From assembly GCA_031409655.1 (NCBI GenBank), contig JANNXQ010000067.1, positions 1 to 48,868 on the forward strand: 48,868 bases of DNA, read 5' to 3'. The position numbers were made by a program, and so were the translations under genes. This DNA is from Chthoniobacteraceae bacterium. Its GTDB lineage: Bacteria; Verrucomicrobiota; Verrucomicrobiia; Chthoniobacterales; Chthoniobacteraceae. Of this stretch, positions 5,888 to 45,984 are shown in pieces; the stretch's first letter is position 1; each line of letters begins with the position of its first letter. The notes under the pieces were generated by a model. That model saw only the letters and a program-made list of their open reading frames with translations. It ran no database searches and was not told the origin of the DNA.

Positions 5888-6075
5888 AGTCGGAGTGACG
5901 AAAAGAACGGCCGTCGGATGGCTACCCGGAGGCAAGCGGAGCCTCAAGGCAGTGTTGAGAAATCGAAAGGGCGGACATCTTTATCGGAGCGGGAGTGATT
6001 TTTTGGACGATCTGCTGGGGGTTACGAGGGGCCGCCGTGGCGTTTTTTCAGGAAAGTCGGAGATTTTTCGGGGAG

Positions 6076-6149
6076 CGCGCCCGGCGGGACTCGAACCCAC
6101 GACCTGCGGTTTAGAAGACCGCTGCTCTATCCAGCTGAGCTACGAGCGC
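6076..6149 (-). tRNA. tRNA-Arg (anticodon TCT), CCA not encoded
   Basis: Minus strand GCGCTCGTAGCTCAGCTGGATAGAGCAGCGGTCTTCTAAACCGCAGGTCGTGGGTTCGAGTCCCGCCGGGCGCG folds as a cloverleaf. Confidence 0.97.
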
Positions 6150-6153
6150 TTTG
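6109..6153. repeat. Left att core, 45 bp (tRNA nt 1-41 plus 4 nt of leader)
   Basis: gtttagaagaccgctgctctatccagctgagctacgagcgctttg identical to 14861-14905. Confidence 0.95.
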
Positions 6154-6154
6154 C

Positions 6155-6183
6155 AGAGTAAAAATGGGGCAAAGACCAGTAAA
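6155..6183 (-). promoter_or_regulatory. Putative element-borne sigma70 promoter for tRNA-Arg
   Basis: Minus strand TTTACT-17 nt-TACTCT ending 5 nt before the mature tRNA 5' end. Confidence 0.55.
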
Positions 6184-6188
6184 ACCGC

Positions 6189-6216
6189 TTGCCATTCTAC
6201 GGTCTGTTTCTACGGT
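6189..6216 (+). promoter_or_regulatory. Putative integrase promoter overlapping arm-type repeats
   Basis: TTGCCA-16 nt-TACGGT ending 6 nt before ATG 6223 (leaderless arrangement). Confidence 0.45.
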
Positions 6217-6246
6217 CACGCCATGAACAAAAACAAAACCGTAGAA
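6195..6246. repeat. Left integrase arm-type repeats
   Basis: TTCTACGGTC at 6195 and 6208, inverted near-copy AACCGTAGAA at 6237; same motif recurs near the right end. Confidence 0.75.
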
Positions 6247-7392
6247 AACAGCGGGAAGACATGGACTCGAACAAACGTTCAGAATTTGGTGCGGCATCGG
6301 AGTGGCCGTTATTATGCGCGGCTCTTCATCGGAGGCAAGGAGCGATGGAAGACACTCGGCACCGACGTACTCGAAGTCGCGAAGACGAAGGTCCGCAAAC
6401 TGGCTGGTGCGGCGGAGAAAATCTCTCGCTCCCAGCGCGCCCATGAGCGCGGACGGATGACCTTCGCCGACGCTGCCGTGATCTTCGATCAACGCCTGGC
6501 CGAAGGCTACGGACTGGCCAGACCGGGGCGCAAGGCCCGGCGCATCCGCCCGCGTGCGGTCAAGTATCGGCTGGAGACTCTGGCCGCGCTTTGGAAGTCG
6601 TGGCCGGACCTGCGCGACATGGATGTGCGAAAGATGAGCGCGCGGGACGCGGAGGCATGGGCAAAGAAGCTGGCGGCGAAATTCTCCGCGACCCGGTACA
6701 ACGGCATTCTGGAAACACTGCGGGCGCTAATCCTGATCGCGCAGGAGGCCGGAGCACTGGCCGACGATCCTACCGAGAGGCTTTCAAGGGAGACGGTGCC
6801 GCAGAAGAAGCTAGTCCTTCCTGAGCGTGGGCAGTTTCTCGATATGGTCGCCGCGATCCGCACCGCTGGCGGGCGCTTCTCCGCTGACTGCGCGGACATG
6901 GTGGAGTTTTTGGCATTCACCGGGGCGCGGCTGAGCGAGGCCGCTGCGGTCGTTTGGAGCGATGTGGACTTCCAGCGCGAGCGCATCCATCTGCGCGTGG
7001 TCAAAGGCGGAAAGCATCCGCGCTTCGTGCCGATGATCGCCGAAGCAAAAACGCTGCTCTCGCGGATGCGGTCGGAACGTCCAGACGAAGCGCCAGCCGA
7101 TCCCGTGCTGCTCGTGAACGAGGCGCAAAAGTCCATGGACCGCGCCGCGCAGAAAGTCGGCGTCGAGCGCATCACACATCACGATCTGCGGCATCTGTTC
7201 GCGACGATCGCCATCGAGAGCGGCGTCGATATTCCGACCGTCGCCCGCTTCCTTGGCCATGTGGACGGCGGTGCGCTCGCGATGAAGGTGTACGGGCACC
7301 TTCGCGACGGGCACGCACTGGAGGCAGCGCGCAAGATTAGCTTCGGCACTAGCGAGCCGGGAAACGTGATCGAGATGCGGGAGGCCGTATGA
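6223..7392 (+). CDS. int: Tyrosine recombinase/integrase
   Basis: TGARLSE, KGGK, HDLRH, LGH, KVY catalytic motifs; N-terminal YYARLFIGGKERWKTLGT arm-binding-like domain. Confidence 0.95.
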   Translation: MNKNKTVENSGKTWTRTNVQNLVRHRSGRYYARLFIGGKERWKTLGTDVLEVAKTKVRKLAGAAEKISRSQRAHERGRMTFADAAVIFDQRLAEGYGLARPGRKARRIRPRAVKYRLETLAALWKSWPDLRDMDVRKMSARDAEAWAKKLAAKFSATRYNGILETLRALILIAQEAGALADDPTERLSRETVPQKKLVLPERGQFLDMVAAIRTAGGRFSADCADMVEFLAFTGARLSEAAAVVWSDVDFQRERIHLRVVKGGKHPRFVPMIAEAKTLLSRMRSERPDEAPADPVLLVNEAQKSMDRAAQKVGVERITHHDLRHLFATIAIESGVDIPTVARFLGHVDGGALAMKVYGHLRDGHALEAARKISFGTSEPGNVIEMREAV

Positions 7393-7949
7393 GCACGAAG
7401 AAGAAGCGCAAGCGCAGACCCACGGCGGCAGCGGCATTCAAGGACGACAAAGGCGCGTGGAAGCACAACCTTAGCGTCGCCACTACTGGCCGGGAGGAAA
7501 ACAACGGTGATCGCCTTGTGTCCGACCTTCTCGGATGCGCTATGCTCGCAAGCGTGACGATTTCCAAAGACGGGAAGGTTCTTGAGCGCGAAACACAGCG
7601 CGAGCAAAAGGCCGCGATTCAAGACTTGGAGGGCTGCCGCCTGAATCTGGCCAGCGAGATTGAGGCCGCAATCTTGCAAGGCAGGCCGGAGTTATTCCGC
7701 GAGATCGCCGAGTGTCTCGGTAGGCCGAAGAGTAACGGCACCCGAGGCAATGCCATTGCTTCCGCGATCGTCGCCTTCGTGCAGATGAGGCGCAGGCTAG
7801 GACGCCTTCCGACCAAGCCGGAACTGCGCGCGGAAACGGAAAAGAAAAGCGGCGGAGTGATCTATCAGAAGAAGTGGGACCGCATCTTCGCTGCACTCGG
7901 ATACGCTGATCTGTATCAGAAAAAGGGCAGACCGAAAAAGGAGACATAG
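7389..7949 (+). CDS. Hypothetical basic protein, possible regulator
   Basis: ATGA overlap with int stop; C-terminal LGRLPTKPELR helix pattern. Confidence 0.6.
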   Translation: MSTKKKRKRRPTAAAAFKDDKGAWKHNLSVATTGREENNGDRLVSDLLGCAMLASVTISKDGKVLERETQREQKAAIQDLEGCRLNLASEIEAAILQGRPELFREIAECLGRPKSNGTRGNAIASAIVAFVQMRRRLGRLPTKPELRAETEKKSGGVIYQKKWDRIFAALGYADLYQKKGRPKKET

Positions 7950-8001
7950 CGGGCGGTACGTTGTCTTAGATCCTCCCAATGCGCCCCCTCAATGTCGGCG
8001 C

Positions 8002-8250
8002 ATGGTAAACGAAACAAAACCACCGCAGACAAAAGCGAAGCGCATCGCGCGTTCGCCTAAGATCACCCTGCCGCTGCTGGAACGCGCGGCAGTCACGCCG
8101 AACGAGTTCGCCGGGCTATTCGGCAAGCAAACCACGTGGGGCTACCGTCAGATATACGAGGGCCGCGTCCGAACGATTAAGACACTGGGCCGCACCCTCA
8201 TCCCCACCAGCGAAGTGCGGAGGCTGCTGGATACAGCGGAGGCTATCTAA
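8002..8250 (+). CDS. Excisionase/AlpA-like HTH protein
   Basis: AVTPNEFAGLFGKQTTWGYRQIYEGRVRTIKTLGRTLIPTSEVRRLL is a typical Xis-like winged HTH. Confidence 0.8.
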   Translation: MVNETKPPQTKAKRIARSPKITLPLLERAAVTPNEFAGLFGKQTTWGYRQIYEGRVRTIKTLGRTLIPTSEVRRLLDTAEAI

Positions 8251-8354
8251 TGGACCCCGACAAAAAAAGAGCGCCGGGCTTTTCGGCACCGGCGCAAGCT
8301 CTGGACGAGCAAGGCGACGATAGCAACGTCACGCGGGAGGGCAAGGGCGAATGA
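8250..8354 (+). CDS. 34-aa coupled ORF (MDPDKKRAPG...)
   Basis: TAATG overlap with upstream gene and ATGA overlap with downstream gene. Confidence 0.45.
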   Translation: MDPDKKRAPGFSAPAQALDEQGDDSNVTREGKGE

Positions 8355-8659
8355 TTGCACTACTCGACGCCAAGGCTGAAAAGTTTGTCCGGCTCGGATT
8401 GGACCGCGCCGCGAGTGAAGGCGAGGTCTCCACTTCCGGCGCCATGTTGTTTCGGCATCTCCGCTCTCAGGGAGTAACCGCCGACGCATTGCTAGGGACC
8501 GCCGCCCCTCACGAGGATTTCCACATCTGGTTTGGAAAATACAACGGACGCCCGATTTCAAAAGTGCCGGGCGATTATCTGCGATGGGTGCTCAGTAAGA
8601 TTGAAGACTTGCCGAGGGAATTTCGCCGCGCCGTCGAACAGGAGCTTGCCACCCGATGA
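8351..8659 (+). CDS. Hypothetical protein with C-terminal DUF3820-like motif
   Basis: IWFGKYNGRPISKVPGDYLRWV motif; coupled to flanking genes. Confidence 0.7.
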   Translation: MIALLDAKAEKFVRLGLDRAASEGEVSTSGAMLFRHLRSQGVTADALLGTAAPHEDFHIWFGKYNGRPISKVPGDYLRWVLSKIEDLPREFRRAVEQELATR

Positions 8660-10296
8660 CAACCGGGCGACCCACTTACGACGAAGCAATGGAGCGGGCG
8701 GCGCTTGGATGCGTCATCCGCGAACCGGAGCGAATGCAGGCTCTCGCCACGAGCGCGGACCCTTCCCACTTCTTCCATCCATCCACGCGCGCCATGTTTG
8801 ACGCGATGCTCTCCATTTACGCGACGGGCGGAACAATCGAGTTCCGCACCATCGGCTCAGAGATGACGAGACTCGGCACGCTCAAGGAAATCGGCAATCC
8901 CGGTTACATTACGCAATGCGCCGATGATGCACCCGCGCCTTCAATGCTCGACGAGTATCTCGTGAAACTTCGTGAGTTGGCGGACATCCGCTTCGGCGAA
9001 GGCGCAGATCAACCGGAGATTAGTGAATGGAGCGCGGTGAACCTGTTCCTTTCCCGTGCGCCGAAGCTGCGGTGCATCGGCACAACTTGGTACGCGTATC
9101 GAGATGGATGCTGGGCTGAAACAAGCCGCCACGAGTTCCGTCCGATCGCGCAGGAGGTGCAACCCCCACTTAAACGCACAGAACGCCGGGAGCGGGCCAT
9201 TCTGGATCACGCCGAGGGTCGTGTGCAGGTGAGCAAAGACAGCCTCCGAGGCTTCTACGCCAAAGACGGCGAGGCCATTCTTATCAATGTCGCCAATGGG
9301 ATTGCCAAAGTCACTGCGGAGCGCTGCGAACTATTGCCGCACAGTCCAGACCACAGCTTCACACTCAAGACCAAGGCGTCGTACGGACCTCACCTCGGCA
9401 GAGAGACGCCATCATTCGCCGCGACACTCAGCGAGGCCATGCCGGACTCCGAAGACCGTCGTCTGTTCCAGATGTTCGCCGGATCGTTGCTCCTTCCTGA
9501 CGCGCGCTTTGAATCCGCTCTCGTCTGTTATGGGCTGGCAGGCACGGGAAAGAGTACGGTCGCGGAGGGTGTAGCCGGAGCTTTGGGTGAACCCTTAGTT
9601 GCCAGGCTGACGATGAAGCAGCTCTGCGACCCCAAAGGCTACCACGTCCCGAGCCTGCGTTTCGCAGCGGTCAATCTAGGTACCGAGCTGGATTCTTTAG
9701 AGGTGGAGGACGGTGGCGCTTTCAAGGCGCTTGCGTCTGGTGAGGCCATTCAGGCCCGACCGATCTACGGCTCACCGTTTGTTATGCAGACAACGGCGAA
9801 GTTGATCTTCCTCAGCAACGACCTTCCGCGCTTCAAAAGCGGCACCGATGGTGAACTAAGGCGGATGCGCTTTATTCGCTTCGACCAGAAGCCCGCCGCA
9901 CCGAATACCAGATTGAAAGAGCAGATCGCCAGCGAGCGCGACGGCATCCTGGAATGGATGATAGAGGGATTGATGGCCGCACTGGACGAGGGTGCCATTC
10001 CGCAAGGTGGAGAAACCTCGCGAGCGGCGCTGAGTAGGTTCAGTATCAGCAATGATCCACTGGCCGGATTCGTCACCTCTCGGTGTGTCCTCGGTGCTCA
10101 CTACCGAGAGGACAAAGGCCACCTTGAAGGCGCATACGCTGAGTATCTGGAAGAGCACGGGATGCCGATCATTATGCAGACAAGCTTCCTAAAACGCCTG
10201 TACGAACGCTACCCGCAAGTGCGCGCCGTTCGTAACCGCGTCGCGGGAGGAGAGCGCCAGAGAGCAATCGTCGGGGTAAAACTGGCCGATGAGTAA
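8656..10296 (+). CDS. Replication protein: DnaB N-terminal-like domain fused to D5/P4-type SF3 helicase
   Basis: Walker A GLAGTGKST, LINVANG, KLIFLSNDLP, LRRMRFIRF; N-terminal ~105 aa follow the DnaB-NTD pattern. Confidence 0.85.
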   Translation: MTTGRPTYDEAMERAALGCVIREPERMQALATSADPSHFFHPSTRAMFDAMLSIYATGGTIEFRTIGSEMTRLGTLKEIGNPGYITQCADDAPAPSMLDEYLVKLRELADIRFGEGADQPEISEWSAVNLFLSRAPKLRCIGTTWYAYRDGCWAETSRHEFRPIAQEVQPPLKRTERRERAILDHAEGRVQVSKDSLRGFYAKDGEAILINVANGIAKVTAERCELLPHSPDHSFTLKTKASYGPHLGRETPSFAATLSEAMPDSEDRRLFQMFAGSLLLPDARFESALVCYGLAGTGKSTVAEGVAGALGEPLVARLTMKQLCDPKGYHVPSLRFAAVNLGTELDSLEVEDGGAFKALASGEAIQARPIYGSPFVMQTTAKLIFLSNDLPRFKSGTDGELRRMRFIRFDQKPAAPNTRLKEQIASERDGILEWMIEGLMAALDEGAIPQGGETSRAALSRFSISNDPLAGFVTSRCVLGAHYREDKGHLEGAYAEYLEEHGMPIIMQTSFLKRLYERYPQVRAVRNRVAGGERQRAIVGVKLADE

Positions 10297-10300
10297 GAAT

Positions 10301-10420
10301 CCGTCCCATCTGTCCCGCCCGTCCCGCCCTGTTTCCTTATGTTCCCTCACACGCACGCACACACGCGCACCCGCGAAAGATAAGAGCGGACCCCGGGACA
10401 CCCGGGACAGCCGGGACACA
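10301..10420. repeat. Putative iteron origin of replication
   Basis: GTCCC at 10303/10312/10321 and inverted GGGAC at 10395/10404/10413 (9-bp period) around a CA/CG-alternating tract, directly after the helicase gene. Confidence 0.7.
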
Positions 10421-10428
10421 AACCGCCC

Positions 10429-10671
10429 ATGAAGGCCGTAGTTCCACTGACCGCAGACCAAGTGGCAAACCTTCACCCCATCATGGAAGCAGCCCGCCTG
10501 CTACCTCACGGCCGGCTTATCGGCCAAGTGCGTCGTGAAGACTTCGACGGCTCGAACGCATCAACAGCAGGCCGATGGCTGCTAACCGTGGCTCTCGTCC
10601 CACCCGAAGCAGCCGAGGCCATGCGGACTGCATACCTCAAGTCCACCGCACCGAGGAAGGCCAAGCCATGA
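10429..10671 (+). CDS. Small hypothetical protein
   Basis: ATG-initiated ORF co-oriented with the replication genes. Confidence 0.55.
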   Translation: MKAVVPLTADQVANLHPIMEAARLLPHGRLIGQVRREDFDGSNASTAGRWLLTVALVPPEAAEAMRTAYLKSTAPRKAKP

Positions 10672-10846
10672 TCCAGATCAGCCACATCATCCCCGGCCTG
10701 CGTCACCGCGAGCCCGGGCAAACCGTCTTCCTCTTATACACCGTGCCGATGACTGCGAGCCCGTGGCGGTCATCGTCGAGCACTGGCGGGGCGTTGGAGC
10801 GATGGCCTACCCCCCCCACCCCGACTAGGAAACCTGTTAGCCGCAC

Positions 10847-10890
10847 ACCACCCGTCCAGAGGTAGACAGAGACCACCCCTCTGGAGTGGT
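10847..10890. other. Dyad upstream of terS-like gene, candidate cos/packaging site
   Basis: TCCAGAGG-15 nt-CCTCTGGA with outer ACCAC/GTGGT arms. Confidence 0.35.
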
Positions 10891-10951
10891 AGCCAAGAAA
10901 AATCAACTTTCCCATCAGCCCCGCTTTTTCGCCCATCCACCACCAAAACGT

Positions 10952-11200
10952 ATGTCAAAACCGATTGAGCTAACCTTTGCCGCCCTCGCGGCAATATACG
11001 GCATCACCGAGCGTTGTCTGCGCGACTTAAAAAAGCGCCGGCCAGATGTATGGGAGCATGATGCCGCCGACGTTTATTACACGTTCCTGGAGCAGCGCAG
11101 CCGTCCCCGCGCGATCCGTGGCGGTGTGGCGTGGATCCACAAAAAGCAGCAGCAGATCGACGCAGCGCGAGGCGCTGGCGGAGGTCAGGGACTCCTATAA
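10952..11200 (+). CDS. Small HTH protein, Nu1-like terminase small subunit candidate
   Basis: ELTFAALAAIYGITERCLRDLKK resembles the lambda Nu1 N-terminal winged HTH pattern. Confidence 0.45.
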   Translation: MSKPIELTFAALAAIYGITERCLRDLKKRRPDVWEHDAADVYYTFLEQRSRPRAIRGGVAWIHKKQQQIDAARGAGGGQGLL

Positions 11201-11411
11201 GCATCGCTTCTCCTCGCTTGGTTACAAGGACTTCTCGGACTACTGCAAGACCAAGTGGGGGATGAGCCGCCGTAATGCTTACGACCTAATGGGAACTGCG
11301 GAGGTCACAAGGAATGTGCAAGAAGTTGCACAAATCAGCCGCGAAGAAGCCCGCCCACTCACTAGGCTCGAAACTCCGGAGCAGCAGCGGGCCGAAACTT
11401 CGGGAGATTGA
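11163..11411 (+). pseudogene. Fragment of a phage HTH-type protein
   Basis: ALAEVRD...GYKDFSDYCKTKWGMSRRNAYDLM...ARPLTRL pattern seen in phage proteins; no convincing start, out of frame with the overlapping upstream ORF. Confidence 0.5.
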
Positions 11412-11423
11412 TAGTAAAGGCGG

Positions 11424-11452
11424 TTGACAATCAATGCTGTGTCCTTCATTTT
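11424..11452 (+). promoter_or_regulatory. Putative sigma70 promoter for the downstream four-gene cluster
   Basis: TTGACA-17 nt-CATTTT shortly before ATG 11461. Confidence 0.5.
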
Positions 11453-11460
11453 CGTTCGTG

Positions 11461-11682
11461 ATGAACGCTGAACCTCCAACCGATCCTGCCAGCGATGCGC
11501 TGCTTACCGGCAGCATGCTCGCCATTCGTTGCGGCAAACCTTCAATGGCCGTTTCCCGTGCGCTGGCCCGTGGAGATATTCAGCCCGATTTCCGAGCGGG
11601 AGGTTTCTCGCTCTTCCGCACTTCCCGTCTCAATGAACTCCGCGTTGCCCTCGACGCCCGCAAGGCTGCACGTCACCGCTAA
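11461..11682 (+). CDS. Small putative DNA-binding protein (Xis/MerR-like)
   Basis: LLTGSMLAIRCG...VSRALARGDIQPD...LFRTSRLNEL pattern. Confidence 0.55.
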   Translation: MNAEPPTDPASDALLTGSMLAIRCGKPSMAVSRALARGDIQPDFRAGGFSLFRTSRLNELRVALDARKAARHR

Positions 11683-11686
11683 CTTT

Positions 11687-12076
11687 ATGAAATCATCCAC
11701 CCCTCAACCGATCGACCTCGCCGCGCTCGAAGCTGTCCTTTTCGAAACCCGCGCACTTACCGCAGAGCGCCGCAAGGCTGCCAAGAAGGTTACTTATACC
11801 GGGCGCGGATTGTTCGGCCCGCAGAACGCCAGCCACGGCGCAAGGTGCGGACTCTGTGGATCACGCTCCACTGCAACCGGCCTTTGCAGGGTCTGCGGCG
11901 GATTACCCGCAGGCAAACGCCTCTCCCCAACGCTAAACAAAACTCCTTCGCAATGGTTCGCCGCTCTCGCCGCAATCGCGGACCCAGTGGGTCGCGTGAA
12001 GTTTTTCAACGAGCATCGCGCTGCGATTTCCGCCGCGAACTATCGCGAGAAGTTCCCGCACGTTCACCGCGAGTAA
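11687..12076 (+). CDS. Zn-finger protein with scaffold-like C-terminal helix pair
   Basis: CGLC...CRVC; C-terminal LAAIADPVGRVKFFNEHRAAI. Confidence 0.6.
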   Translation: MKSSTPQPIDLAALEAVLFETRALTAERRKAAKKVTYTGRGLFGPQNASHGARCGLCGSRSTATGLCRVCGGLPAGKRLSPTLNKTPSQWFAALAAIADPVGRVKFFNEHRAAISAANYREKFPHVHRE

Positions 12077-12098
12077 TTCACCCACCAACCAAAGCCCC

Positions 12099-12599
12099 AT
12101 GTTATCTGCATACGCACCCACAAACGACGCACTCACCACGCCGGAAAATTCCCTCATTAGCTCCTCAGAAGCTGCACGCCGCGCTAAGCTCGCGGAGCAA
12201 GTCGCCCAAGCTACCGACGCACTCGCCGCACACAACGAAGCGCTTCGGAGTAAAGGAGAAACTTGGGCTGGCTATGTTGAGAACGTCGAGGGCTCTATCC
12301 GCACTTTCCTCCTCGCGGAAAGTGCAGTCAGCCATTGCGAACGGGAGAACGAGCAGTGCCGGAAAAGCATTCTCGCGTCACTCCCACACTGCGGCGAACG
12401 GTCAATCCGCGAACGCGTCGTTGTCGCCGGCCGCACTATTGGAATGAACGAAACAGCGATTCGCGAGATTCGCTCTGCCATCGAGACGTATCAGAAGTCA
12501 CACGTCGAGCTGATCACCGAGGCGCGTGAATACGCGAAGTCCGCGAAGATTCCACAGCAGCTTTGGCCGGACGCGATGAAGGCCGCGAGCTTGGACTAA
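12099..12599 (+). CDS. Helical/coiled-coil hypothetical protein
   Basis: 166-aa Ala/Glu/Arg-rich ORF in operon position. Confidence 0.6.
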   Translation: MLSAYAPTNDALTTPENSLISSSEAARRAKLAEQVAQATDALAAHNEALRSKGETWAGYVENVEGSIRTFLLAESAVSHCERENEQCRKSILASLPHCGERSIRERVVVAGRTIGMNETAIREIRSAIETYQKSHVELITEAREYAKSAKIPQQLWPDAMKAASLD

Positions 12600-12613
12600 G
12601 ACTTTGGTTCGAT

Positions 12614-12662
12614 GGCGGCGCGCGTCGGGGTTTTCTCATGGTTCCCGGCGCGCGTCGTTTTC
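12614..12662 (+). terminator. Long hairpin before the tape-measure-like gene
   Basis: ggcggcgcgcgtcgggg pairs with tcccggcgcgcgtcgtt (with G-U pairs), short T run follows. Confidence 0.45.
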
Positions 12663-12683
12663 GGACCTAACTAAAACAACTTT

Positions 12684-13709
12684 ATGGCAAACCTCGCAGC
12701 ATCCATCGTCGCCCGGCTCGGGCTCGATACCGGCCCGCTGAAACGCGGACTCAAAGAAGCCGAGCGCGATGTCGGCGGATTCGCGAAGTCGCTTAACTTC
12801 CTCAAGGGAACGCTCGCGCTTATCGGCGTGCAAAAACTCGTTCAAGGATTCAAAGAAGTCGTCGGACTCGGCAAGGAACTGAACCCTGCACTTAAACATT
12901 CCGAGGAGACCTTGAGGGCACTCAATCAGGAATCGGCGGGTTTGACCGATGCGCAGCTCGAGGCGCTCTCCAAGATCGAGGACGGCTGGCTAGGTGTGGG
13001 TGCCCGTATCAAGGGCTTTTTCGCTCAGGTTGTCTTGAGCGCAGAACAGGCCAGCGCTGCCGCGAACGTGGATAACATCGCAGGCGGTGGAACGGGTGGC
13101 TTCTTCGGTAACTTCAAGAAGGCGTTCGCCGAAAATGGCAATCAGCGCGAACAAGCCAAAAAGGATGCGGAGGCTCGCGCTGCCGAAGCCGCTCAAGAAA
13201 AAGTGGCCGGGATCCACAACGAGATCGTTGAGCTACAGCGAGCGGACGCCACCAGCCGAATCTCGACCGGGGAGAAAATCCTTGAGATCGAGGAACGGAT
13301 CGCCGCCGCGCGAGCCGCACAGTTCAACACGGACCCCGTGTTGCAGGCCGGTGCGGAGAAGACGGAGGCGAAACTTAAGATCGAGAAAGCCGCGCTTGTG
13401 CGGCAGGAAAAGGAGGAGGAGGAAAAGGCATTTCAGCAGCGCATTGATGCGAAGCTCGTCCCCCTGGATGATCGGCGCAGCGCAAAGTCGCAAGCGGCTC
13501 TCCGCGCACGCACCGGGCGGGCCATCAAAAAGAACGATGAAAGCCGAGACCTTACCAACAGGTTGAACGGTCGGCAGCTTTCGCCGCGCAATTTACCGCC
13601 AGACATTGCGGCTCCAAACGCTCCGAAAGTGGCGGCCATCACTCCGGGTGAGACGCAGATTGTTCAGCGGATGGATACCCTGATCGAGAATTTGAAAGTG
13701 AAGGTTTAG
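12684..13709 (+). CDS. Short tape-measure-like protein (341 aa)
   Basis: N-terminus ASIVARLGLDTGPLKRGLKEAERDVGGF is typical of tail tape-measure starts; amphipathic and long coiled-coil segments follow. Confidence 0.65.
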   Translation: MANLAASIVARLGLDTGPLKRGLKEAERDVGGFAKSLNFLKGTLALIGVQKLVQGFKEVVGLGKELNPALKHSEETLRALNQESAGLTDAQLEALSKIEDGWLGVGARIKGFFAQVVLSAEQASAAANVDNIAGGGTGGFFGNFKKAFAENGNQREQAKKDAEARAAEAAQEKVAGIHNEIVELQRADATSRISTGEKILEIEERIAAARAAQFNTDPVLQAGAEKTEAKLKIEKAALVRQEKEEEEKAFQQRIDAKLVPLDDRRSAKSQAALRARTGRAIKKNDESRDLTNRLNGRQLSPRNLPPDIAAPNAPKVAAITPGETQIVQRMDTLIENLKVKV

Positions 13710-13736
13710 ACTTTCGTGAGGTGGCAATGGGGAAGC

Positions 13737-13773
13737 AAAAAGCCCGACCAGCGCAAACTGGTCGGGCTCTTTT
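13737..13773. terminator. Bidirectional intrinsic terminator
   Basis: AGCCCGACCAG-cgcaaa-CTGGTCGGGCT flanked by A and T runs between convergent genes. Confidence 0.85.
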
Positions 13774-13790
13774 GTGTCGAGTGGTGGGGA

Positions 13791-14033
13791 CTAGGCGATG
13801 ACGCGGGAAATCTCCTTTGCGTTCTTCATTTTTCGGAGCGTTATGGGGCTCACTCCGCGCAGCCTCGCCTCTTCGGTTTCCCCGGGTATTTCATCGGGGT
13901 TCCATGCGCGCATCAGGATCAGAGCCAATTTTTCGGGCGTGAGCTTTAGACGGGCAATCGCTATGTCCGTCGCTTCCGATACCAGGGAGGGAGGCAGTCT
14001 TTTCAACAACTGCGTGAGTTGGTCGGCGTTCAT
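13791..14033 (-). CDS. Small protein with possible C-terminal HTH
   Basis: MNADQLTQ...EEARLRGVSPITLRKMK; ATGA overlap with upstream gene. Confidence 0.6.
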   Translation of the reverse strand: MNADQLTQLLKRLPPSLVSEATDIAIARLKLTPEKLALILMRAWNPDEIPGETEEARLRGVSPITLRKMKNAKEISRVIA

Positions 14034-14254
14034 GCCGCGAGCTTCCGTGCCGCTGTCACGGTGGGCGACAGTTGGAGCAGGAACAGCACGCGCAAGAAGC
14101 TCTGGACGGACACCCGCGCCGTCTTCGCTCCCTCTAGCACAAGGGGAGCTAAATCGTGCGGCACTTCCAAGGGCTTTTTCTCTCCCAAGTCGATGAGGAT
14201 ACGACGGGCGGCGGGCTTGGTGGATTTCTTCACTGCGGTTTTCTGTGTTTTCAT
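14030..14254 (-). CDS. Small basic protein, ribbon-helix-helix-like; alternative in-frame start at 14347
   Basis: LEVPHDLAPLVLEGAKTARVSVQSFLRVL pattern; coupled to next gene. Confidence 0.55.
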   Translation of the reverse strand: MKTQKTAVKKSTKPAARRILIDLGEKKPLEVPHDLAPLVLEGAKTARVSVQSFLRVLFLLQLSPTVTAARKLAA

Positions 14255-14256
14255 CG

Positions 14257-14347
14257 GTATGCAAAAAGTCCGCTCCCGAAGGCTTACACCTTTTCGCCGC
14301 ACGGCATCACCCGGAACAGCTATCGGAAACGGACTTTGAATCTGCAT
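14257..14347 (-). promoter_or_regulatory. Structured leader carrying the two antisense target sites
   Basis: AAAGTCCGTTTCCGA pairs with TCGGGAGCGGACTTT, enclosing GGTGATG (14311-14305) and GTGTAAGC (14289-14282). Confidence 0.7.
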
Positions 14348-14350
14348 TAT

Positions 14351-14410
14351 GTGCGTCGCCCCGGTGATGGCCGGGATTTCAGAATGACGGTTGCCGTGTA
14401 AGCAGCAACG
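14351..14410 (-). ncRNA. C4/CI-like antisense RNA
   Basis: Outer stem CGTTGC/GCGACG with two hairpins presenting GCTTACAC and CATCACC, each complementary to a downstream site. Confidence 0.7.
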
Positions 14411-14415
14411 ATTCG

Positions 14416-14445
14416 AGATTGAGCGCACGCCGTGCCACCGTGCAA
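14416..14445 (-). promoter_or_regulatory. Putative promoter of the C4-like RNA operon
   Basis: TTGCAC-18 nt-CAATCT ending 5 nt before the predicted RNA. Confidence 0.45.
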
Positions 14446-14649
14446 GCGCAGAATTGACCGCTACGGGCGCTGCGTGTCCTGATGCCAGTTTCAGGCAAGC
14501 GGATGGCCCGCCTTGTGCGATGCAATGGGTGTCCCCACGCGGTTGCTGTGCGAAACCCTCCCCGGCTTGTCGCCTCGCCACGCGGCGGACATTTTTTTGG
14601 GATAGCGTCCGGCGTGGTCGTGGTTGGCGCGCCGGACGTGACCTTTGGG

Positions 14650-14735
14650 AACTTTTCACGGTCTTCTACGGTCCTGCTCAGAGACTATTTTTCCTCGTCC
14701 CCTAGCCTAACTTTTCACGGTCGTCTTCTACGGTC
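14650..14735. repeat. Right integrase arm-type repeats
   Basis: Two copies of AACTTTTCACGGTC(GTC)TTCTACGGTC at 14650 and 14709; share TTCTACGGTC with the left end. Confidence 0.8.
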
Positions 14736-14860
14736 GCGCCCCTTTTCGGTGGAAAGCGGTGAAAAACGAAGACAAACGCAATCGACCGCAAACCCTTTGT
14801 GGAGGCTGATCCGCAGCCGATTCGGTAAACTGTGAAAAACAGGCAAAACCGCCGTTTTCC

Positions 14861-14905
14861 GTTTAGAAGACCGCTGCTCTATCCAGCTGAGCTACGAGCG
14901 CTTTG
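14861..14905 (-). repeat. Right att core: displaced 5' fragment of tRNA-Arg(TCT)
   Basis: Identical to 6109-6153; tRNA similarity stops 2 nt past the anticodon loop. Confidence 0.95.
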
Positions 14906-15067
14906 GCGACACTGCCCCGAGCGGGAGGATGGATGCCATGGAATGCCTGAACCGACCAGCGGAAAAGCGCGGGTCTGCTGGCGCCAGCGTGTTCGAGGAG
15001 CGGCGGAAGGGGTGAGAAATTCACGAAACTCCCTTTGCACGGCGCGGGACCTTTGCTAGAAATTCCG

Positions 15068-15174
15068 ATGTCGGCGTTGGCTCCCGGGTGATTATCTGAC
15101 TCTGAGCCTCCCAAAAGCTAGACGCTCCCTGTCCTTGGATTTGCGCCTATAGCGGTCAACGCCGACACTTTTTT
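15068..15174 (+). ncRNA. Candidate ~100-nt small RNA
   Basis: 13-bp closing stem TGTCGGCGTTGGC/GTCAACGCCGACA, T run after, promoter-like TTGCAC-16-TAGAAA before. Confidence 0.45.
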
Positions 15175-15361
15175 CTTCATACGAGACGTGGCCGGAAGCG
15201 GACGTGGCACGAATCGCGCTAAAACTGGAACCCTCCGCGGGAGTGGTTGCCCGCGGGTGGGGGAATAACAGCCGGCGTTGTGTCAGATAGGGGACACAGC
15301 GCCGGTCTCTTCCTTTTTGAGGATGACCGGCGCCGGTGATTCGCGATCTGCGGAGGAAAAG

Positions 15362-16323: not shown

Positions 16324-18525
16324 CTAGCCCGGGAGCGGGAAGCGGCGCGTGAGATTGCGCACCTTTTCGCGGATGGCCGCGAGGGCTGCGGGGTCTTCAC
16401 GCTTGGTCAGCGCTTCGTGCATGAGGTCGGCGATTTCCATCATGTCGTCCTCTTTCATGCCGCGGCTGGTCACGGCAGGCGTGCCGACGCGGATGCCGCC
16501 GCCGAGCGAGATTTTCTCGGTGTCGAAAGGGATGCCGTTCTTATTCACGGTGATGCCGGCGTGATCGAGCACCTCGCTGGCGATCTTGCCGTTGAGGCCT
16601 TTCGGACGGAGGTCCACGAGCATCAGGTGATTGTCCGTGCCGCCGCTGGCGAGGCGGTAGCCGTGATGCTGGAGCCGGGCGGCGAGGGCTTTGGCGTTGC
16701 TCACGACCTGCGCGGCGTACGCTTTGAAGGAAGGCTGGAGGGCTTCGAGGAAGCACACCGCTTTCGCCGCGATGACGTGTTCGAGCGGGCCGCCCTGGAT
16801 GCCGGGGAAAACCTGGCCATCGATGGCTTTCGCGTATTGCTCCTTGCAGATGATGATGCCTCCGCGCGGTCCGCGCAGGCTCTTGTGGGTCGTCGTGGTG
16901 GTGAAGTCCGCCAGCGCGCAAGGATTCGGATGCAGACCGCCCGCGACAAGGCCGGCGATGTGCGCCATGTCCACGAAGAGATAAGCGCCCACGCTATCGG
17001 CAATCTGGCGCATCCGCGCGAAGTCGATGATCCGCGAGTAGGCGCTGGCCCCGGCGGTGATCATCCGCGGCTTCACCTCCAGAGCGACGGCGGCGAGGGC
17101 GTCGTAGTCGATGCGCTCGTCCTTTTCGCTCACGCCGTAGTGGGTGACTTCATAGAAGCGCCCGGAAAAATTCGCTTTGTGGCCGTGCGTGAGATGGCCG
17201 CCGTGGGCGAGGTTCATCGTCAGGATTTTGTCGCCCAGATTCAGCATGGCGAAATAGACCGCGGTATTCGCCTGCGAACCGGAGTGCGGCTGCACGTTCA
17301 CATGCTCGGCTCCAGGAAAGAGCAGCTTCACGCGATCGATGGCCAGTTGCTCGACCACATCCACGTGCTCGCAACCCCCGTACCAACGCCGACCCGGATA
17401 GCCTTCCGCGTACTTATTGGTGAGGCAGGAGCCCTGCGCTTCCATCACGGCGCGGCTGGTGAAATTCTCGCTGGCGATGAGCTCGATGTTCTCAAATTGC
17501 CGCCGCGCTTCGGCCTGCACGGCAGCGAAGATTTCCGGGTCCGCCTCGGCAAGCGACAGCGTCTGCATGTTCGCCATGCCGATTTGCTCCAGCTTCTCGA
17601 TGCGCCGCGCATGGCGTCCACCTTCAAAACCCGTCCCGAGAAATGCCTCGACGATCTTCGCGACCTGGATGCTCTCGACGTGATTCGCCGCAAGGCAGAG
17701 CACGTTGGAATTGTTGTGCTGCCGGGTCGTGCGGGCGTCTTCGGCGCTGGCCACGAGGGCCGCGCGGATTTGCGGATGCCGATTCGCTGCGATGCTCATC
17801 CCGATCCCACTCTTACACGCGAGGATGCCGAAGTCCGCCGCCGTGCTGATGACCTCGTGGCACACCGGTTCGGAGAAATCCGAGTAATCGACCGACTCCG
17901 CCGAGTTCGTCCCGAAGTCGGTGACGATGTGCCCCTTTTTAGAAAGGTAATCGTGGATCGCGCTCTTGAGTTCGACGCCGCCGTGATCGGCCCCGAGGGC
18001 AATGCGGAGGGGGCGGCTGAAGGTGCTGGGCTGGGTGGTGGGTGAAGACTGCGCGGTGGACATGGATGGGGATTTTTCGAGGAAGTTGAAAAGGCTGGGC
18101 GTCGCGCGCTGGAGGGCATCCCGCGTGTCGAGATAGGCGTCGAGACCCATGCCGATCGGATCTGGTACGTCTGGATTCTCATCCCGGGCGCTCTCGTCGA
18201 ATTGGCGGACGAGAAAGACCTTCTCCGCCGCCTCCGGGAAGAACATCAGGATCGTGTCGAGATGCCCCTGGGTCATCGCAAAGATGTGCGTGGCCCAACC
18301 GACGAGATCGTCCGTGAGCGGCTGACTGCGCTGCCAGCCGATGTCGATGCCGAGTGGCTTCAGCGCGGTCACGGAATGCGGACTCGGCGCCTGCCCGTAT
18401 CCCGTCGAGACACCCGCCGAGGCTACTTCGTAGTCCTTGCGCCCCTTGACGGCGTCACGAAAGAGACCTTCAGCCATCGGGCTGCGGCAGATGTTTCCGG
18501 TGCAGACAAAGAGGATGCGTTTCAA
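16324..18525 (-). CDS. glyA: Fusion of LMW protein Tyr/Arg phosphatase, RpiB and serine hydroxymethyltransferase
   Basis: One frame holds [17 protein letters not shown]...GGRHARR, and [31 protein letters not shown] start inferred. Confidence 0.92.
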
Positions 18526-18703
18526 AAGGCGCGGCGTGAGGGCGGGAAGATAGGGACGCAGATTTGCCAAGTCAACGCGGTCGGGTGCCGGGAAGAATGG
18601 GCTTGCCCCGCGCAGTTCCTTCGCGAATGGAAACAGCCATGGCTGTCTCTGACCCATGTTCGAAATGCGACCGCGCCGGCTTCGCGGTGGCCGGTGTGGA
18701 GCC

Positions 18704-21001
18704 ATGACGGCGGAACGCGCCGCCGCACGTCCAGTGGAGGAGCGGGGCGTCCGCTGGCGGCGCTGGCTCTGGGGTTTCGCGATCGTCGTCGCGACCTGCG
18801 GGGCCTACTACCCCTGTCTCCACGGGAGCTTTTTGTGGGACGATGATGCCTGGACCACGCGGCTCCAGCCACTCTTCGAATCAGGAACCGCCCTCCGCCA
18901 GATTTGGACGAATCCAACAGCGCTGCAGCAGTTCTATCCGCTCACGGGGACCACTTTCTGGGCGGACCACCACCTCTGGGGCGGCTGGACGCTGCCTTAC
19001 CACCTTCAGAATGTGCTCCTCCACGCGATCGCGGCGCTGCTCTTTTGGAAGGTGCTGCGTCGCTTGGAAGTTCCGGGAGCCTGGCTGGCCGCCGGGATTT
19101 TTGCGGTCCATCCCGTGATGGTCGAATCCGTGGCCTGGGTCGCGGAGCGGAAGAATGTGCTCTCGCTCGCGCTCTTTCTCGGGGCGCTGGCGTCGTATGC
19201 GCGCTTTGCGGGAGATTGGCGGGCTGATGCGGAGCCGGGGCCGCGGGGATCTTACTTCGCTGCCTTGGGGCTCTTCCTCGGCGCGCTTTTGGCGAAGGTC
19301 ACGGCTTACGTTTTTCCTCCGACGATCCTCATCATCTGCTGGTGGAAGCGGGGCCGGATTTCGCGGCGCGACATCATTCCGCTTTTGCCGTTCTTCGCAC
19401 TCTCCTTCGTCGTGGGGACGATTGTCACCTGGGTGGAGATTGTTCACGTCGGGGCCGAGGGAGAGGACTGGCAGGCGACCTTCGGCCAGCGTCTGTTGCT
19501 CGCGGGACGGGCGGTCTCGATGTATCTCGCGCGGCTGCTCTGGCCGGCGGATCTCTGCTTCATGTATCCGCGCTGGGAGTTGGACACGGGGTCGATCACG
19601 CAGTGGCTTTTTCCCATCGGGGTGGTGGCGTTCGCGGGGGCGCTCTGGCGCTTTCGGCAGCGGCTCGAGCGCGGGGTCTTCGCGGCCGTGTTCTTTTTCG
19701 CGGGCACCATTTTTCCCGTCCTTGGTTTTATGAACGTGTACGGCATGCGCTTCGCATCGGTGGCGGATCACTGGGTGTACGTCTCCAGCCTCAGCGTTTT
19801 TGCCTTGGGCGCGAGTGCTCTGGTGCTCGCTGCCGAGCGGCTGCGCCGGGCTTGGATCGGGCCGGCCTTCGCGGCCTGTGTTCTCCCCTTGCTGGCGGGC
19901 CTGAGCTGGCGGGAAGCGGCGCAGTATCGCGATGCGGAGACACTCTGGCGCTCCACGATCTCCAGGAATCCCGGGAACTGGATGCCTTACTACAGCCTCG
20001 GATTGCTCAAGATGGAGCAAGGTCGCGCGGAGGAGGCTCTGGGCTACTATCGGCAATCGATCGAGCGGAAGCCGCGGCACCCCATCGCCTACAGCAACAT
20101 CGGCGTTGCCCTTTTTCAGCTCGGGCGCGATCCCGAGGCGGTTGCCTCCTTTGATAAGGCCATCGCCCTCGGTGTGCGGATGCCGGAAGTGCAGGCCAAT
20201 CTCGCGAATGCGCTGCTCCGGCTGGGGCGCAGCGACGATGCGATCTTCGCGTTGCGTGAATCCGTGAGCATCGACCCTCGCCGCGCAACCACGCACCTGG
20301 CCCTGGGATCGGCGTATGCAAAGAAGGGGCGTCCCGATGACGCGCTGGCGAGTTACCAGGCGGCGGTCGAAATCGATCCCACCAGTGCCGTGGCCCATTT
20401 CGCTTTGGGAAATCTCCTGCTCAAGCACGGTCGCGCCGCAGACGCGGTCGCGCATTTCCAAACGGCGGTCGCCTGCGATCCGAAGCTCGCTGCGGCGCAC
20501 GGAAACCTCGGTCTGGCTTTGCTCCAGATCGGGAGAGCGCAGGACGCGATCACCCATTGCCAGCAGGCCACGCGGCTCGATCCGCAGTTGCCGGAAGCGC
20601 ACAATAATCTCGGCCAGGCCTATCTCCGCTCCAGTCGTTTTCGCGAGGCGGCGGCAGCGTTTCGACGCGCGCTCGACCTGAACCCTGGCCATCTCTCGGC
20701 GTTGGCGAATTGCGCCTGGGTGCTCGCGGCGAGCCCAGACGCCACGGTGCGCGATGGCGAGCAGGCCTTGGAACTGGCCAAGCGGGCCGAGCAGGGTCAC
20801 GCGGGCCGCGACCTCTTTACCTTGCGCGCTCTCGCTGCCGCCTACGCCGAGACGGGGGCATTTTCCGTGGCCGAAGATACCGTCCAGCGCGCCCTCGGGA
20901 CCACGAAAATCCCCGAGCAGACCGCCATCCTGCAAGAGGAACTCGCCCTCTATCGGTCAGGCAGGCCCTATCGCCTGCCGAGCAGTGGTCCCGTCAATTG
21001 A
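18704..21001 (+). CDS. TMTC-like GT-C membrane glycosyltransferase with TPR repeats
   Basis: [26 protein letters not shown] motifs, multiple TMs, C-terminal TPR array. Confidence 0.85.
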
Positions 21002-44607: not shown

Positions 44608-45984
44608 TCACGACTTCAGATTCAGCTTCTGCGGGAGCGCCGGTGGGAGGTGCTGCGCTGGGGCGTGCTTGTCGCGGGAGGCCTCGTGGTTTAAGCGGAA
44701 GCAGGTTGGGTCTTCATCGGTTGTCCCGAGTTCTTTCTTGGCGATGTCCAGCGCGCGCCGGATCGCGGTCTTATTCACGCTGTAGATCACGGCCGTTTCC
44801 TCCGTGATCTTGCCGGCCTTAAAGAGCCCCACGAGATCCTGCTCAAAACTGTGCCAGCCCACCTGCTGGCTGGCCTCGATGATTTCGTGATAACTGCGCA
44901 GCTCGCTTTCACCGAGGAGCATCGTCTCCCGGGAGCGCATGCTATTACCCATGATCTCGGAGACCATCACGCGCCCGCCGCCCACCTTCGGCGCGAGGCG
45001 CTGGCTGACCACGTAACGGAGGGTGTCGGCGAGCCGCTGGCGGATCTGCTCTTCCTCGTGATGCGAAAACATGCCGATCACGCGATTGACCGACTGCGAC
45101 GCGCTGATCGTGTGCAGGGTGGAAAAGACGACGTGCCCAGTCTCCGCTGCGGTGAGCGCGATCTCCATGGTATCGCGGTCGCGGATTTCGCCGACGAGGA
45201 TGACCTTCGGCGCCTGCCGCAAAGCCGCGCGCAGCCCCACGGCGAAGTCCGAGAAGTCCTTCCCAAACTCGCGTTGGCTGAAGGTCGCCTTGGCGTGCGG
45301 GTGCAAAAATTCGATGGGGTCTTCGAGCGTCACCACGTGCATCTCGCTCGTTTGATTCAGCTCATTGAGCATCGCGGCGAGCGTCGTCGTCTTGCCGCTG
45401 CCGGTGGCGCCGGTCACGAAGATGAGGCCGGTCTTCTCTTTGATCATCTCGCGGAAGATCGGCGGCAGGCCGAGCGCCTCGAGCGAAGGGATCTTGGTGC
45501 TCAGCTTGCGCATGACGATGGCGTGATTGCCATTCTGGCGGAAGATATTCACGCGGAAGCGCGCGAGGTCCGCCACGGAGTAACTGGTGTCGCAGGAGCC
45601 GGTGTTCTTGAAATCGACGGCGAGCCGTTCGTTACTCGCCATCAGCTTGCCGGCGATGGCTTCGACGTGCGCGGGCTGCAGCACCGGAGAAAGCCCTGGA
45701 ATCTCAACGCCGGTGAGCTTGCCGAAGATTTCGACCTGCGGCGGTTTGCCGACGACGAAAAGGAGATCGGAAACGCCATCGGCCGTGCCGACCATCGTGC
45801 GAATGATGTCGTCCAAGGCGAAGACTTGGGGTTGGGAGCGCGCCGTTTGCCCTTGAGCGAGATCGCGCGCTCTGGCCGGAGATGGCTGGAGACTCGTGCG
45901 GGGCTGGATGCCGGAGGGCGTGCTGGCGATCGGAGGAGGCGGTTGCGTCATCATGCCCGCAGGCAAGGGCAGCTTGTGTGCCAC
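44608..45984 (-). CDS. PilT/PilU family type IV pilus ATPase
   Basis: GATGSGKTT, TLEDPIE, ALRQAP..ILVGEIRD, AETGH...STLH. Confidence 0.92.
   Translation of the reverse strand: MAHKLPLPAGMMTQPPPPIASTPSGIQPRTSLQPSPARARDLAQGQTARSQPQVFALDDIIRTMVGTADGVSDLLFVVGKPPQVEIFGKLTGVEIPGLSPVLQPAHVEAIAGKLMASNERLAVDFKNTGSCDTSYSVADLARFRVNIFRQNGNHAIVMRKLSTKIPSLEALGLPPIFREMIKEKTGLIFVTGATGSGKTTTLAAMLNELNQTSEMHVVTLEDPIEFLHPHAKATFSQREFGKDFSDFAVGLRAALRQAPKVILVGEIRDRDTMEIALTAAETGHVVFSTLHTISASQSVNRVIGMFSHHEEEQIRQRLADTLRYVVSQRLAPKVGGGRVMVSEIMGNSMRSRETMLLGESELRSYHEIIEASQQVGWHSFEQDLVGLFKAGKITEETAVIYSVNKTAIRRALDIAKKELGTTDEDPTCFRLNHEASRDKHAPAQHLPPALPQKLNLKS

Follow-up and report, generated by a model that had tools for sequence, protein, structure and literature searches.

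A reversed integrative element at tRNA-Arg(TCT) of a Chthoniobacteraceae bacterium, with a predicted tRNA promoter antisense within its integrase gene

Integrated elements nearly always leave their target tRNA under its own promoter (PMC8371274). Islands with a 5′ tRNA fragment make up 159 of 3919 in Islander (PMC4383910), reviews citing Zhao and Williams 2002 describe recombination at the 5′ part of a tRNA as infrequent (PMC6563490, PMC1635311), and the divergent 'OD' shape of integrase and tRNA accounts, together with SIT, for under 8% (PMC2951348). Such reverse-orientation islands carry a tyrosine integrase and have an anticodon-centred core; the 5′ fragment is displaced upstream, and the intact gene is severed from its native promoter. 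In the accessible parts of the literature found on them the replacement promoter is not located, and Zhao and Williams 2002 (J Bacteriol 184:859) may discuss it. Archaeal integrases of the pTN3 type use the tRNA 5′ half as attB, with a core of about 41 bp; their att site is part of the integrase gene itself, integration splits that gene, and expression of the restored tRNA comes from element DNA by way of the integrase promoter, which is seldom the case in bacteria (PMC8371274, PMC5495485). The HTVC019P-type pelagiphages HTVC011P, HTVC109P and HTVC120P, which are full SAR11 phages, give the 5′ part of tRNA-Leu or tRNA-Arg, and the word 'promoter' is absent from the main text of that paper as accessible (bioRxiv 10.1101/410191). 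Islands with dusA-associated integrases replace the 5′ end of a protein-coding target and offer putative -10/-35 boxes, which the accessible text does not place in the integrase gene (PMC4482086). In tRNA-dependent lysogeny the host comes to rely on the element to provide an essential tRNA. The core measures about 10 bp, integration does not reconstitute the host gene, and a complete tRNA is encoded by the phage itself (PMC10865867).

The window analysed here is a whole stretch of 48,868 nt from a Chthoniobacteraceae bacterium (contig JANNXQ010000067.1 of assembly GCA_031409655.1). ARAGORN called an intact tRNA-Arg(TCT) gene at 6075-6149 on the minus strand. Its nt 1-41, together with 4 leader bases, form a 45-nt sequence (6109-6153, minus strand) that recurs as an exact direct repeat at 14861-14905 (minus strand), which would be expected about 3e-17 times by chance in 48.9 kb; the remaining nt 42-75 belong to the host and lie beyond the element. 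Identity of the two copies stops 2 nt beyond the 7-nt anticodon loop. The second copy is an orphan tRNA 5′ half adjoining host upstream DNA, on the same strand as the intact gene and 8752 nt upstream of it. Both the composition of the duplication and the nature of the orphan copy had been proposed in an earlier sequence-only reading of the window, and repeat mapping agreed with them. Between the two copies lies an element interior of 8.7 kb (6154-14860) with 59.4% GC (genome, 63.4%).

The intact tRNA thus has element DNA upstream, and the integrase stands head-to-head with it. In Islander terms, a PF00589 integrase lies within the interval, and the intact tRNA and the end fragment have the same orientation, the correct configuration and a distance between 2 and 200 kb; in reverse-orientation terms, the element lies upstream of the intact tRNA and provides its 5′ half. 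These features support a reversed (5′-half) integration at the anticodon loop as the probable origin of the arrangement. The reversed geometry is real and already known: the sequence-only reading had regarded it as unusual, and it is indeed rarer than the ordinary one, but it has been described before and is the rule in the integrase family of the window.

All the features listed above for reverse-orientation islands are shared by the window; its integrase family differs in having this geometry as a rule over many tRNA targets and in a promoter predicted inside the integrase. With pTN3 the locus shares the 5′-half attB, the core size and, by prediction, expression of the tRNA from element DNA, but its integrase is whole and faces away from the tRNA, for which a separate antisense promoter is predicted; a 389-aa frame that is intact and a predicted integrase promoter that faces away from the tRNA also set it apart from pTN3-like or SSV-type suicidal integrases. 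The pelagiphages likewise supply the tRNA 5′ part, and the element differs from them in having no structural gene matches. The dusA islands are alike in replacing the 5′ end of the target and differ in their protein-coding target and promoter placement. Dependence of the host on the element for an essential tRNA would be common to the window and tRNA-dependent lysogeny, but here the core is 45 nt, the host gene is rebuilt intact, and ARAGORN called no tRNA inside the element. A literature search found no paper on an antisense tRNA promoter inside an integrase gene in the material accessible; Williams 2002, Zhao and Williams 2002 or supplements may hold one.

The tyrosine integrase (6223-7392, plus strand; 389 aa, uninterrupted; PF00589, E 1.7e-21) has all the catalytic motifs (R, K, HxxR, H and Y). 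Its frame begins 70 nt past the 45-nt core, and a 73-nt spacer separates it from the tRNA. Downstream, an 82-aa ORF without a family match (8002-8250, plus strand), guessed to be excisionase-like, has a 57% identical homologue adjoining the integrase in locus L126. It is followed by a P4-family-like primase-helicase with DnaB-N / D5_N / DUF5906 matches (8656-10296, plus strand), and two small overlapping ORFs of 74 and 80 aa lie at the far end (13791-14254, minus strand). Phage satellites of the PICI-like kind are under about 15 kb and carry an integrase and a primase-helicase, with packaging or capsid-redirecting genes and a helper phage. The element, 8.7 kb with an integrase and a primase-helicase, agrees with the first part of this definition; no terminase or capsid family match was found among the element ORFs scanned, most of which had no match at all.

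Repeats are placed just inside both element ends: two copies of TTCTACGGTC at 6195 and 6208 (6195-6217, plus strand), and, at the far end (14654-14735, plus strand), TTTCACGGTC at 14654 and 14713 and TTCTACGGTC at 14664 and 14726. Four of the seven genome copies of the 10-mer TTCTACGGTC are at the two element ends. By position the repeats are putative arm-type integrase binding sites. A predicted integrase promoter, TTGCCA-16-TACGGT (6189-6216, plus strand), ends 6 nt before the ATG and is overlapped by the arm-type repeats; relatives show TTGACA-17-(T/G)ATACT at this place, and the layout resembles that of the self-repressed intS (PMC2951348). An IHF-like motif is absent from the window and present in 42/123 head-to-head and 7/12 ordinary loci.

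The integrase family was surveyed at 205 loci, 204 of them with an integrase match, drawn from the best 80 of 213 and the best 80 of 568 relatives. At 133 of the 204 the integrase is head-to-head with an intact tRNA, another 19 show the ordinary orientation, and the remaining 52 lack an intact tRNA in the vicinity, many of these being contig ends and several having a tRNA fragment; head-to-head loci are 133/152 of the tRNA-adjacent integrases. Targets include tRNAs for Arg, Ser, Met(CAT), Lys, Thr, Leu, Gly, Pro and Asn. A survey of homologues for 5′-type att duplications, as the sequence-only reading had proposed, yielded a distal tRNA fragment of nt 1-37 to 1-41 in 10 head-to-head loci, the window included, and one more (nt 20-37) that is doubtful. 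No distal 3′ fragment was found within the DNA examined at the 19 ordinary loci, a class assigned by orientation alone. Viral contigs added 20 distant relatives, whose sequences end at the integrase and carry no att information. A FastTree tree with 120 rows shows four changes of orientation; nested within its head-to-head core are two ordinary-orientation lineages at tRNA-Arg(ACG/TCG). The nested flips comprise L061, L065, L067, L076, L082, L092, L106 and their kin; the loops of tRNA-Arg(ACG/TCG) have a central CG, and we guess that this partial symmetry may ease inversion. In L083, L084, L181, L193 and L216 a 5′ tRNA fragment instead of an intact gene adjoins the integrase, as expected of tandem arrays of reversed elements. 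In L090 and L232 the integrase is next to a tRNA 3′ half that lacks a restored 5′ half. The former locus also carries a complete tRNA-Arg(TCT), located 126 nt beyond the integrase, an arrangement like that of tRNA-dependent lysogeny.

The host flanks and the assembly were then considered. The host gene downstream of tRNA-Arg(TCT) is syntenic in two of three same-genus genomes, G003 and G001 (58-60% identity). A comparison with an element-free strain, recommended by the sequence-only reading, found no partner: no empty-site genome sharing the upstream context was seen among 60 relatives searched with the tRNA or 150 family genomes searched with 14906-15360, the latter query giving two short matches only. 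Unitigs and contigs from four DNA runs of one study break inside the 45-nt repeat, so that integrated, empty and circular forms are indistinguishable in them, and in run X1 the depth is 9.7 on the element and 12-13 on the flanks. Both observations could favour an assembly artefact made of a free circle and an empty site; a further thought along this line is that the tRNA is reached by read-through across the element from host or internal promoters. This pair of explanations is considered very unlikely: read-through would have to traverse 8.7 kb against most element genes, the geometry is the same at 133 loci, the arm-type repeats are just inside both ends, and the downstream host gene is syntenic as stated above. 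In run X2 a sister-strain contig connects the 5′ part of the tRNA with 15014-15261 (about 90% identity) and has other sequence in place of the 111 nt between them, which supports 14906 onward being host DNA. Interpretation of this 6150-15014 joint as an empty site was rejected, the contig fitting the orphan copy equally well.

The intact gene is the sole TCT tRNA among 57 ARAGORN calls, and blastn found no second full copy in the genome, rated 94.9% complete and 5.26% contaminated; the sequence-only reading had called for this check. By standard wobble rules a CCT tRNA cannot read AGA, and AGA is used by 973 of 3279 crudely called host genes; tRNA-Arg(TCT) must therefore be expressed. The geometry supports the view that transcription of the sole tRNA-Arg(TCT) found would have to be supplied by the element. 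To this extent the earlier claim that the tRNA is under element control stands. That claim had been coupled to at least four AGA codons in the element helicase; the primase-helicase has exactly 4, but the link is nonspecific. AGA makes up 7/181 Arg codons in nine element ORFs and 1.3% in the crudely called host genes, a 3.0-fold difference, and ten other A-ending codons are enriched 1.1- to 6.7-fold in element genes. No sign was seen of the element tuning tRNA-Arg(TCT) for its own AGA codons: AGA is not more enriched than other A-ending codons, and the integrase family targets many other tRNAs.

For locating the tRNA promoter, a matrix was built from 43 native tRNA upstream regions of this one genome, at least 2 of which later proved element-derived. 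The native pattern consists of a TTGCNN -35, a 16-18 nt spacer and a YAnnnT -10, with leave-one-out scores having a median of 10.1, a lower quartile of 8.4 and an upper quartile of 11.9 (n = 43); the best -10 is at least 12 nt from the tRNA in all 43 regions. Within 250 nt of tRNA-Arg(TCT) the top site is TTGCCT-16-CATAAT (6338-6311, minus strand), 161 nt upstream of the tRNA and antisense within the integrase gene, with a score of 13.4 that 3.5% of shuffles reach. It has the sigma-70-type tRNA promoter pattern of this genome and, read on the opposite strand, corresponds to integrase codons G38-K39 (-35) and Y30-A32 (-10). No other consensus match and no terminator-like site were found in 5900-6400. 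In the majority of 67 head-to-head loci the codon 30-39 site is likewise one of the three best-ranking sites. From these matches we consider it likely that the element drives tRNA-Arg(TCT) from a sigma-70-type promoter lying antisense in codons 30-39 of its own integrase.

The sequence-only reading had placed the promoter in the spacer, at TTTACT-17-TACTCT (6183-6155, minus strand). The hexamers (TTTACT at 6183-6178, TACTCT at 6160-6155) and the 17-nt spacing are present as described; as a promoter the site is no better than chance. It scores 5.3 against the native median of 10.1 and lies 5 nt from the tRNA, nearer than the best site of any of the 43 native regions, and 67.5% of shuffles of the 90-nt spacer region reach the best score of that region (shuffle mean 8.1). 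It was rejected as the main site on these grounds, and the earlier placement is probably wrong. Transcription from elsewhere in the 73-nt spacer could also be proposed, namely from TGGCGT-18-TAGAAT, which lies in an arm repeat, or from a -10-like CATTTT 11 nt upstream of the tRNA. In favour of this, TAGAAT, at 44 nt, makes a good -10 (score 7.1), the whole integrase family has an AT-rich spacer, and good sites occur within the spacer of some relatives, at 11 or 57-65 nt. Spacer scores of 5.3-7.1 nevertheless fall under both the native lower quartile and the shuffle mean, and no one spacer position recurs family-wide, unlike the codon 30-39 site; a spacer promoter, whether one of these or TTTACT-17-TACTCT, is thus judged unlikely. 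Upstream of the orphan fragment a native promoter was not identifiable, the best score in 160 nt being 4.4, and the sister strain of run X2 differs from the window exactly where the displaced native promoter would lie; these two observations are compatible with decay of a displaced promoter.

Constraint on the integrase codons was next compared between orientations. The -35 core TTGC is kept in 126/132 head-to-head and 5/18 ordinary loci (two unalignable rows, L031 and L154, left out), for which Fisher p-values overstate the difference because the tree holds just 3 independent orientation contrasts and the sign test on them is not significant (median p 0.5). After 75% dereplication the counts are 70/75 and 1/9, and in the core of the family 122/122 and 5/11. 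Along the tree of the family core, TTGC was lost in 6/10 usable ordinary rows over 3.4 branch units and in 0/92 head-to-head rows over 36.1 branch units. The codon 30-39 site beats the mean of its synonymous-codon shuffles in 129/132 head-to-head loci. G38 is encoded by GGC in 66/66 dereplicated glycines (38/38 in a first, smaller set) and shows the strongest synonymous constraint of all 394 columns (G 102, median 10.8); background use of GGC is 42.5%, and 13 other conserved Gly columns range from 0.17 to 0.75. Amino-acid changes preserve the DNA motif, K being replaced by N as AAT and G by S as AGC. Conservation of the -10 is looser than that of the -35, with enrichment of TAT at Y30 (20/32) and Y31 (12/16) and none of TTT at F31 (10/24).

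A second sample speaks against the promoter reading: TTGC was found in only 23/32 head-to-head loci with a catalytic domain, and GGC in 19/25 glycines from 27 intact head-to-head integrases. Several elements in which the site is lost have a different candidate facing the tRNA, at 11 nt in a Thr(TGT) subgroup with a longer spacer and at 57-65 nt in four others; L265 and L275 show no clear replacement upstream of the tRNA. At P26 (window numbering), the second most constrained coding column, CCA is used for 32/43 prolines; this is possibly a second tandem promoter or a start-site region.

The constrained codons might instead serve the element, either as an antisense promoter that damps the integrase or as a protein-binding site, with the tRNA served otherwise. 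The predicted transcript does overlap the integrase start and promoter, TTGC is kept by some ordinary-orientation integrases (the 5/18 above), and the constraint at P26 has no explanation of its own. An overlapping antisense gene is unlikely, since each of the three antisense frames is frequently interrupted (of 67 loci, 28, 20 and 5 have the frame open). Loci with no tRNA downstream have mostly lost the motif, which resembles native tRNA promoters in spacing and sequence and is retained in dead integrases that have no catalytic domain left to regulate. A purely element-serving role is accordingly improbable, and the antisense site is still best read as a tRNA promoter, though antisense control of the integrase could be a second effect of the same transcript.

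Dead copies were studied in a stub sample of 94 loci (92 in a second alignment), comprising the listed N-terminal profile matches, 40 hand-picked loci and four earlier ones; 82 and 167 further profile matches lie outside it. The N-terminal profile matches 104/151 family genomes. Of the stubs, 36 are head-to-head and show no catalytic domain within at least 0.9 kb; 34 of them (33 in the second alignment) retain TTGC, and 34/35 of their glycines are GGC, figures to be read with the hand-picked loci having been chosen for short frames or truncated matches and the profile itself favouring the codon 30-39 region. Neighbouring invariant residues have decayed in the same stubs (G 26/36, N 64%, L 77%; p 0.006), and in two stubs stop codons interrupt the first 30 model codons. 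Ordinary-orientation stubs kept TTGC in 2/4. One head-to-head stub without a catalytic domain is in this genome, on contig C102 upstream of tRNA-Ser(CGA) (45828-45919); it ends 4 codons past the glycine and carries TTGCCC-16-CATAGT 150 nt upstream of the tRNA.

A mechanism can be proposed from these observations. The integrase would recombine at the 7-nt anticodon loop, where we infer the crossover, with attP inverted relative to ordinary elements, and the host promoter would be left in front of a 41-nt tRNA fragment. Transcription would start near 6304 from the antisense site. Its leader, some 155 nt long, would be antisense to the first 27 or so integrase codons, would then cross the integrase promoter and the arm sites, and would have to be trimmed to release the mature tRNA. 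As tRNA-Arg(TCT) is the only AGA reader found, the predicted promoter would come under host-level selection, and such selection would explain both its decay on a flip to the ordinary orientation and its persistence as a stub after the death of the element.

What appears to be new here is the predicted intragenic antisense promoter, together with its apparent decay on orientation reversal and its apparent survival in stubs. A broader scenario is offered tentatively, with nearly even odds: a large Verrucomicrobiota integrase family wrote an antisense tRNA promoter into its N-terminal codons and invades essential tRNAs backwards, making the host dependent; the native promoter decays, excision becomes costly, dead elements are trimmed to the promoter, and many tRNAs of the phylum are transcribed from domesticated stubs. 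In the accessible literature found, a replacement promoter has been located only for archaeal pTN3, and the family of the window gives an answer for bacteria that can be tested at the level of bases. If the prediction is true, the stretch is dual-coding, and changes at a few synonymous codons should suffice to turn an essential host tRNA on or off with the integrase unaltered; orientation flips and dead stubs are natural controls offered by the family. It would also be a route for mobile DNA to become a permanent host promoter. Tools that seek only 3′ tRNA fragments would mis-delimit such elements, whose N-terminal profile has the wide distribution given above.

Several minor observations were made in the same genome and its relatives. 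Upstream of tRNA-Arg(TCT), 5′ fragments or integrase remnants occur in L112 (G021), L122 (G023), L125 (G034), L113 (G014) and L119 (G003); with remnants in several family members, the 5′ side of this gene is a hotspot. A distant integrase (30% identity) in the genome of the window is head-to-head with tRNA-Leu(TAA) (G000:C279, 20307-21630), and a 5′ fragment of nt 1-42 lies at G000:C256, 38284-38325, giving a second reversed element on two contigs. At about 6750-7533 of G000:C213 there is a tight tRNA array (Gln and four Leu) that is probably mobile DNA; the same contig has two tRNA-Pro(GGG) 3′ fragments.

On the orphan side of the window, 15069-15169 (plus strand) forms a rod-like hairpin of about 100 nt (-42.1 kcal/mol, z -3.95), preceded by a promoter-like stretch, followed by a T run and oriented divergently to the orphan tRNA fragment. 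It had no Rfam match, carries 4 substitutions in the sister strain, was not found in 150 family genomes, and is a candidate small RNA. A 74-nt sequence before a hairpin (15235-15308) is 99% identical to G001:C190:13-86 from another species of the genus, in which the rest of the region was not found. Further along, 16324-18705 (minus strand) is a single long open frame with LMWPc, RpiB and serine hydroxymethyltransferase domains in a row, either a gene fusion or in-frame neighbours.
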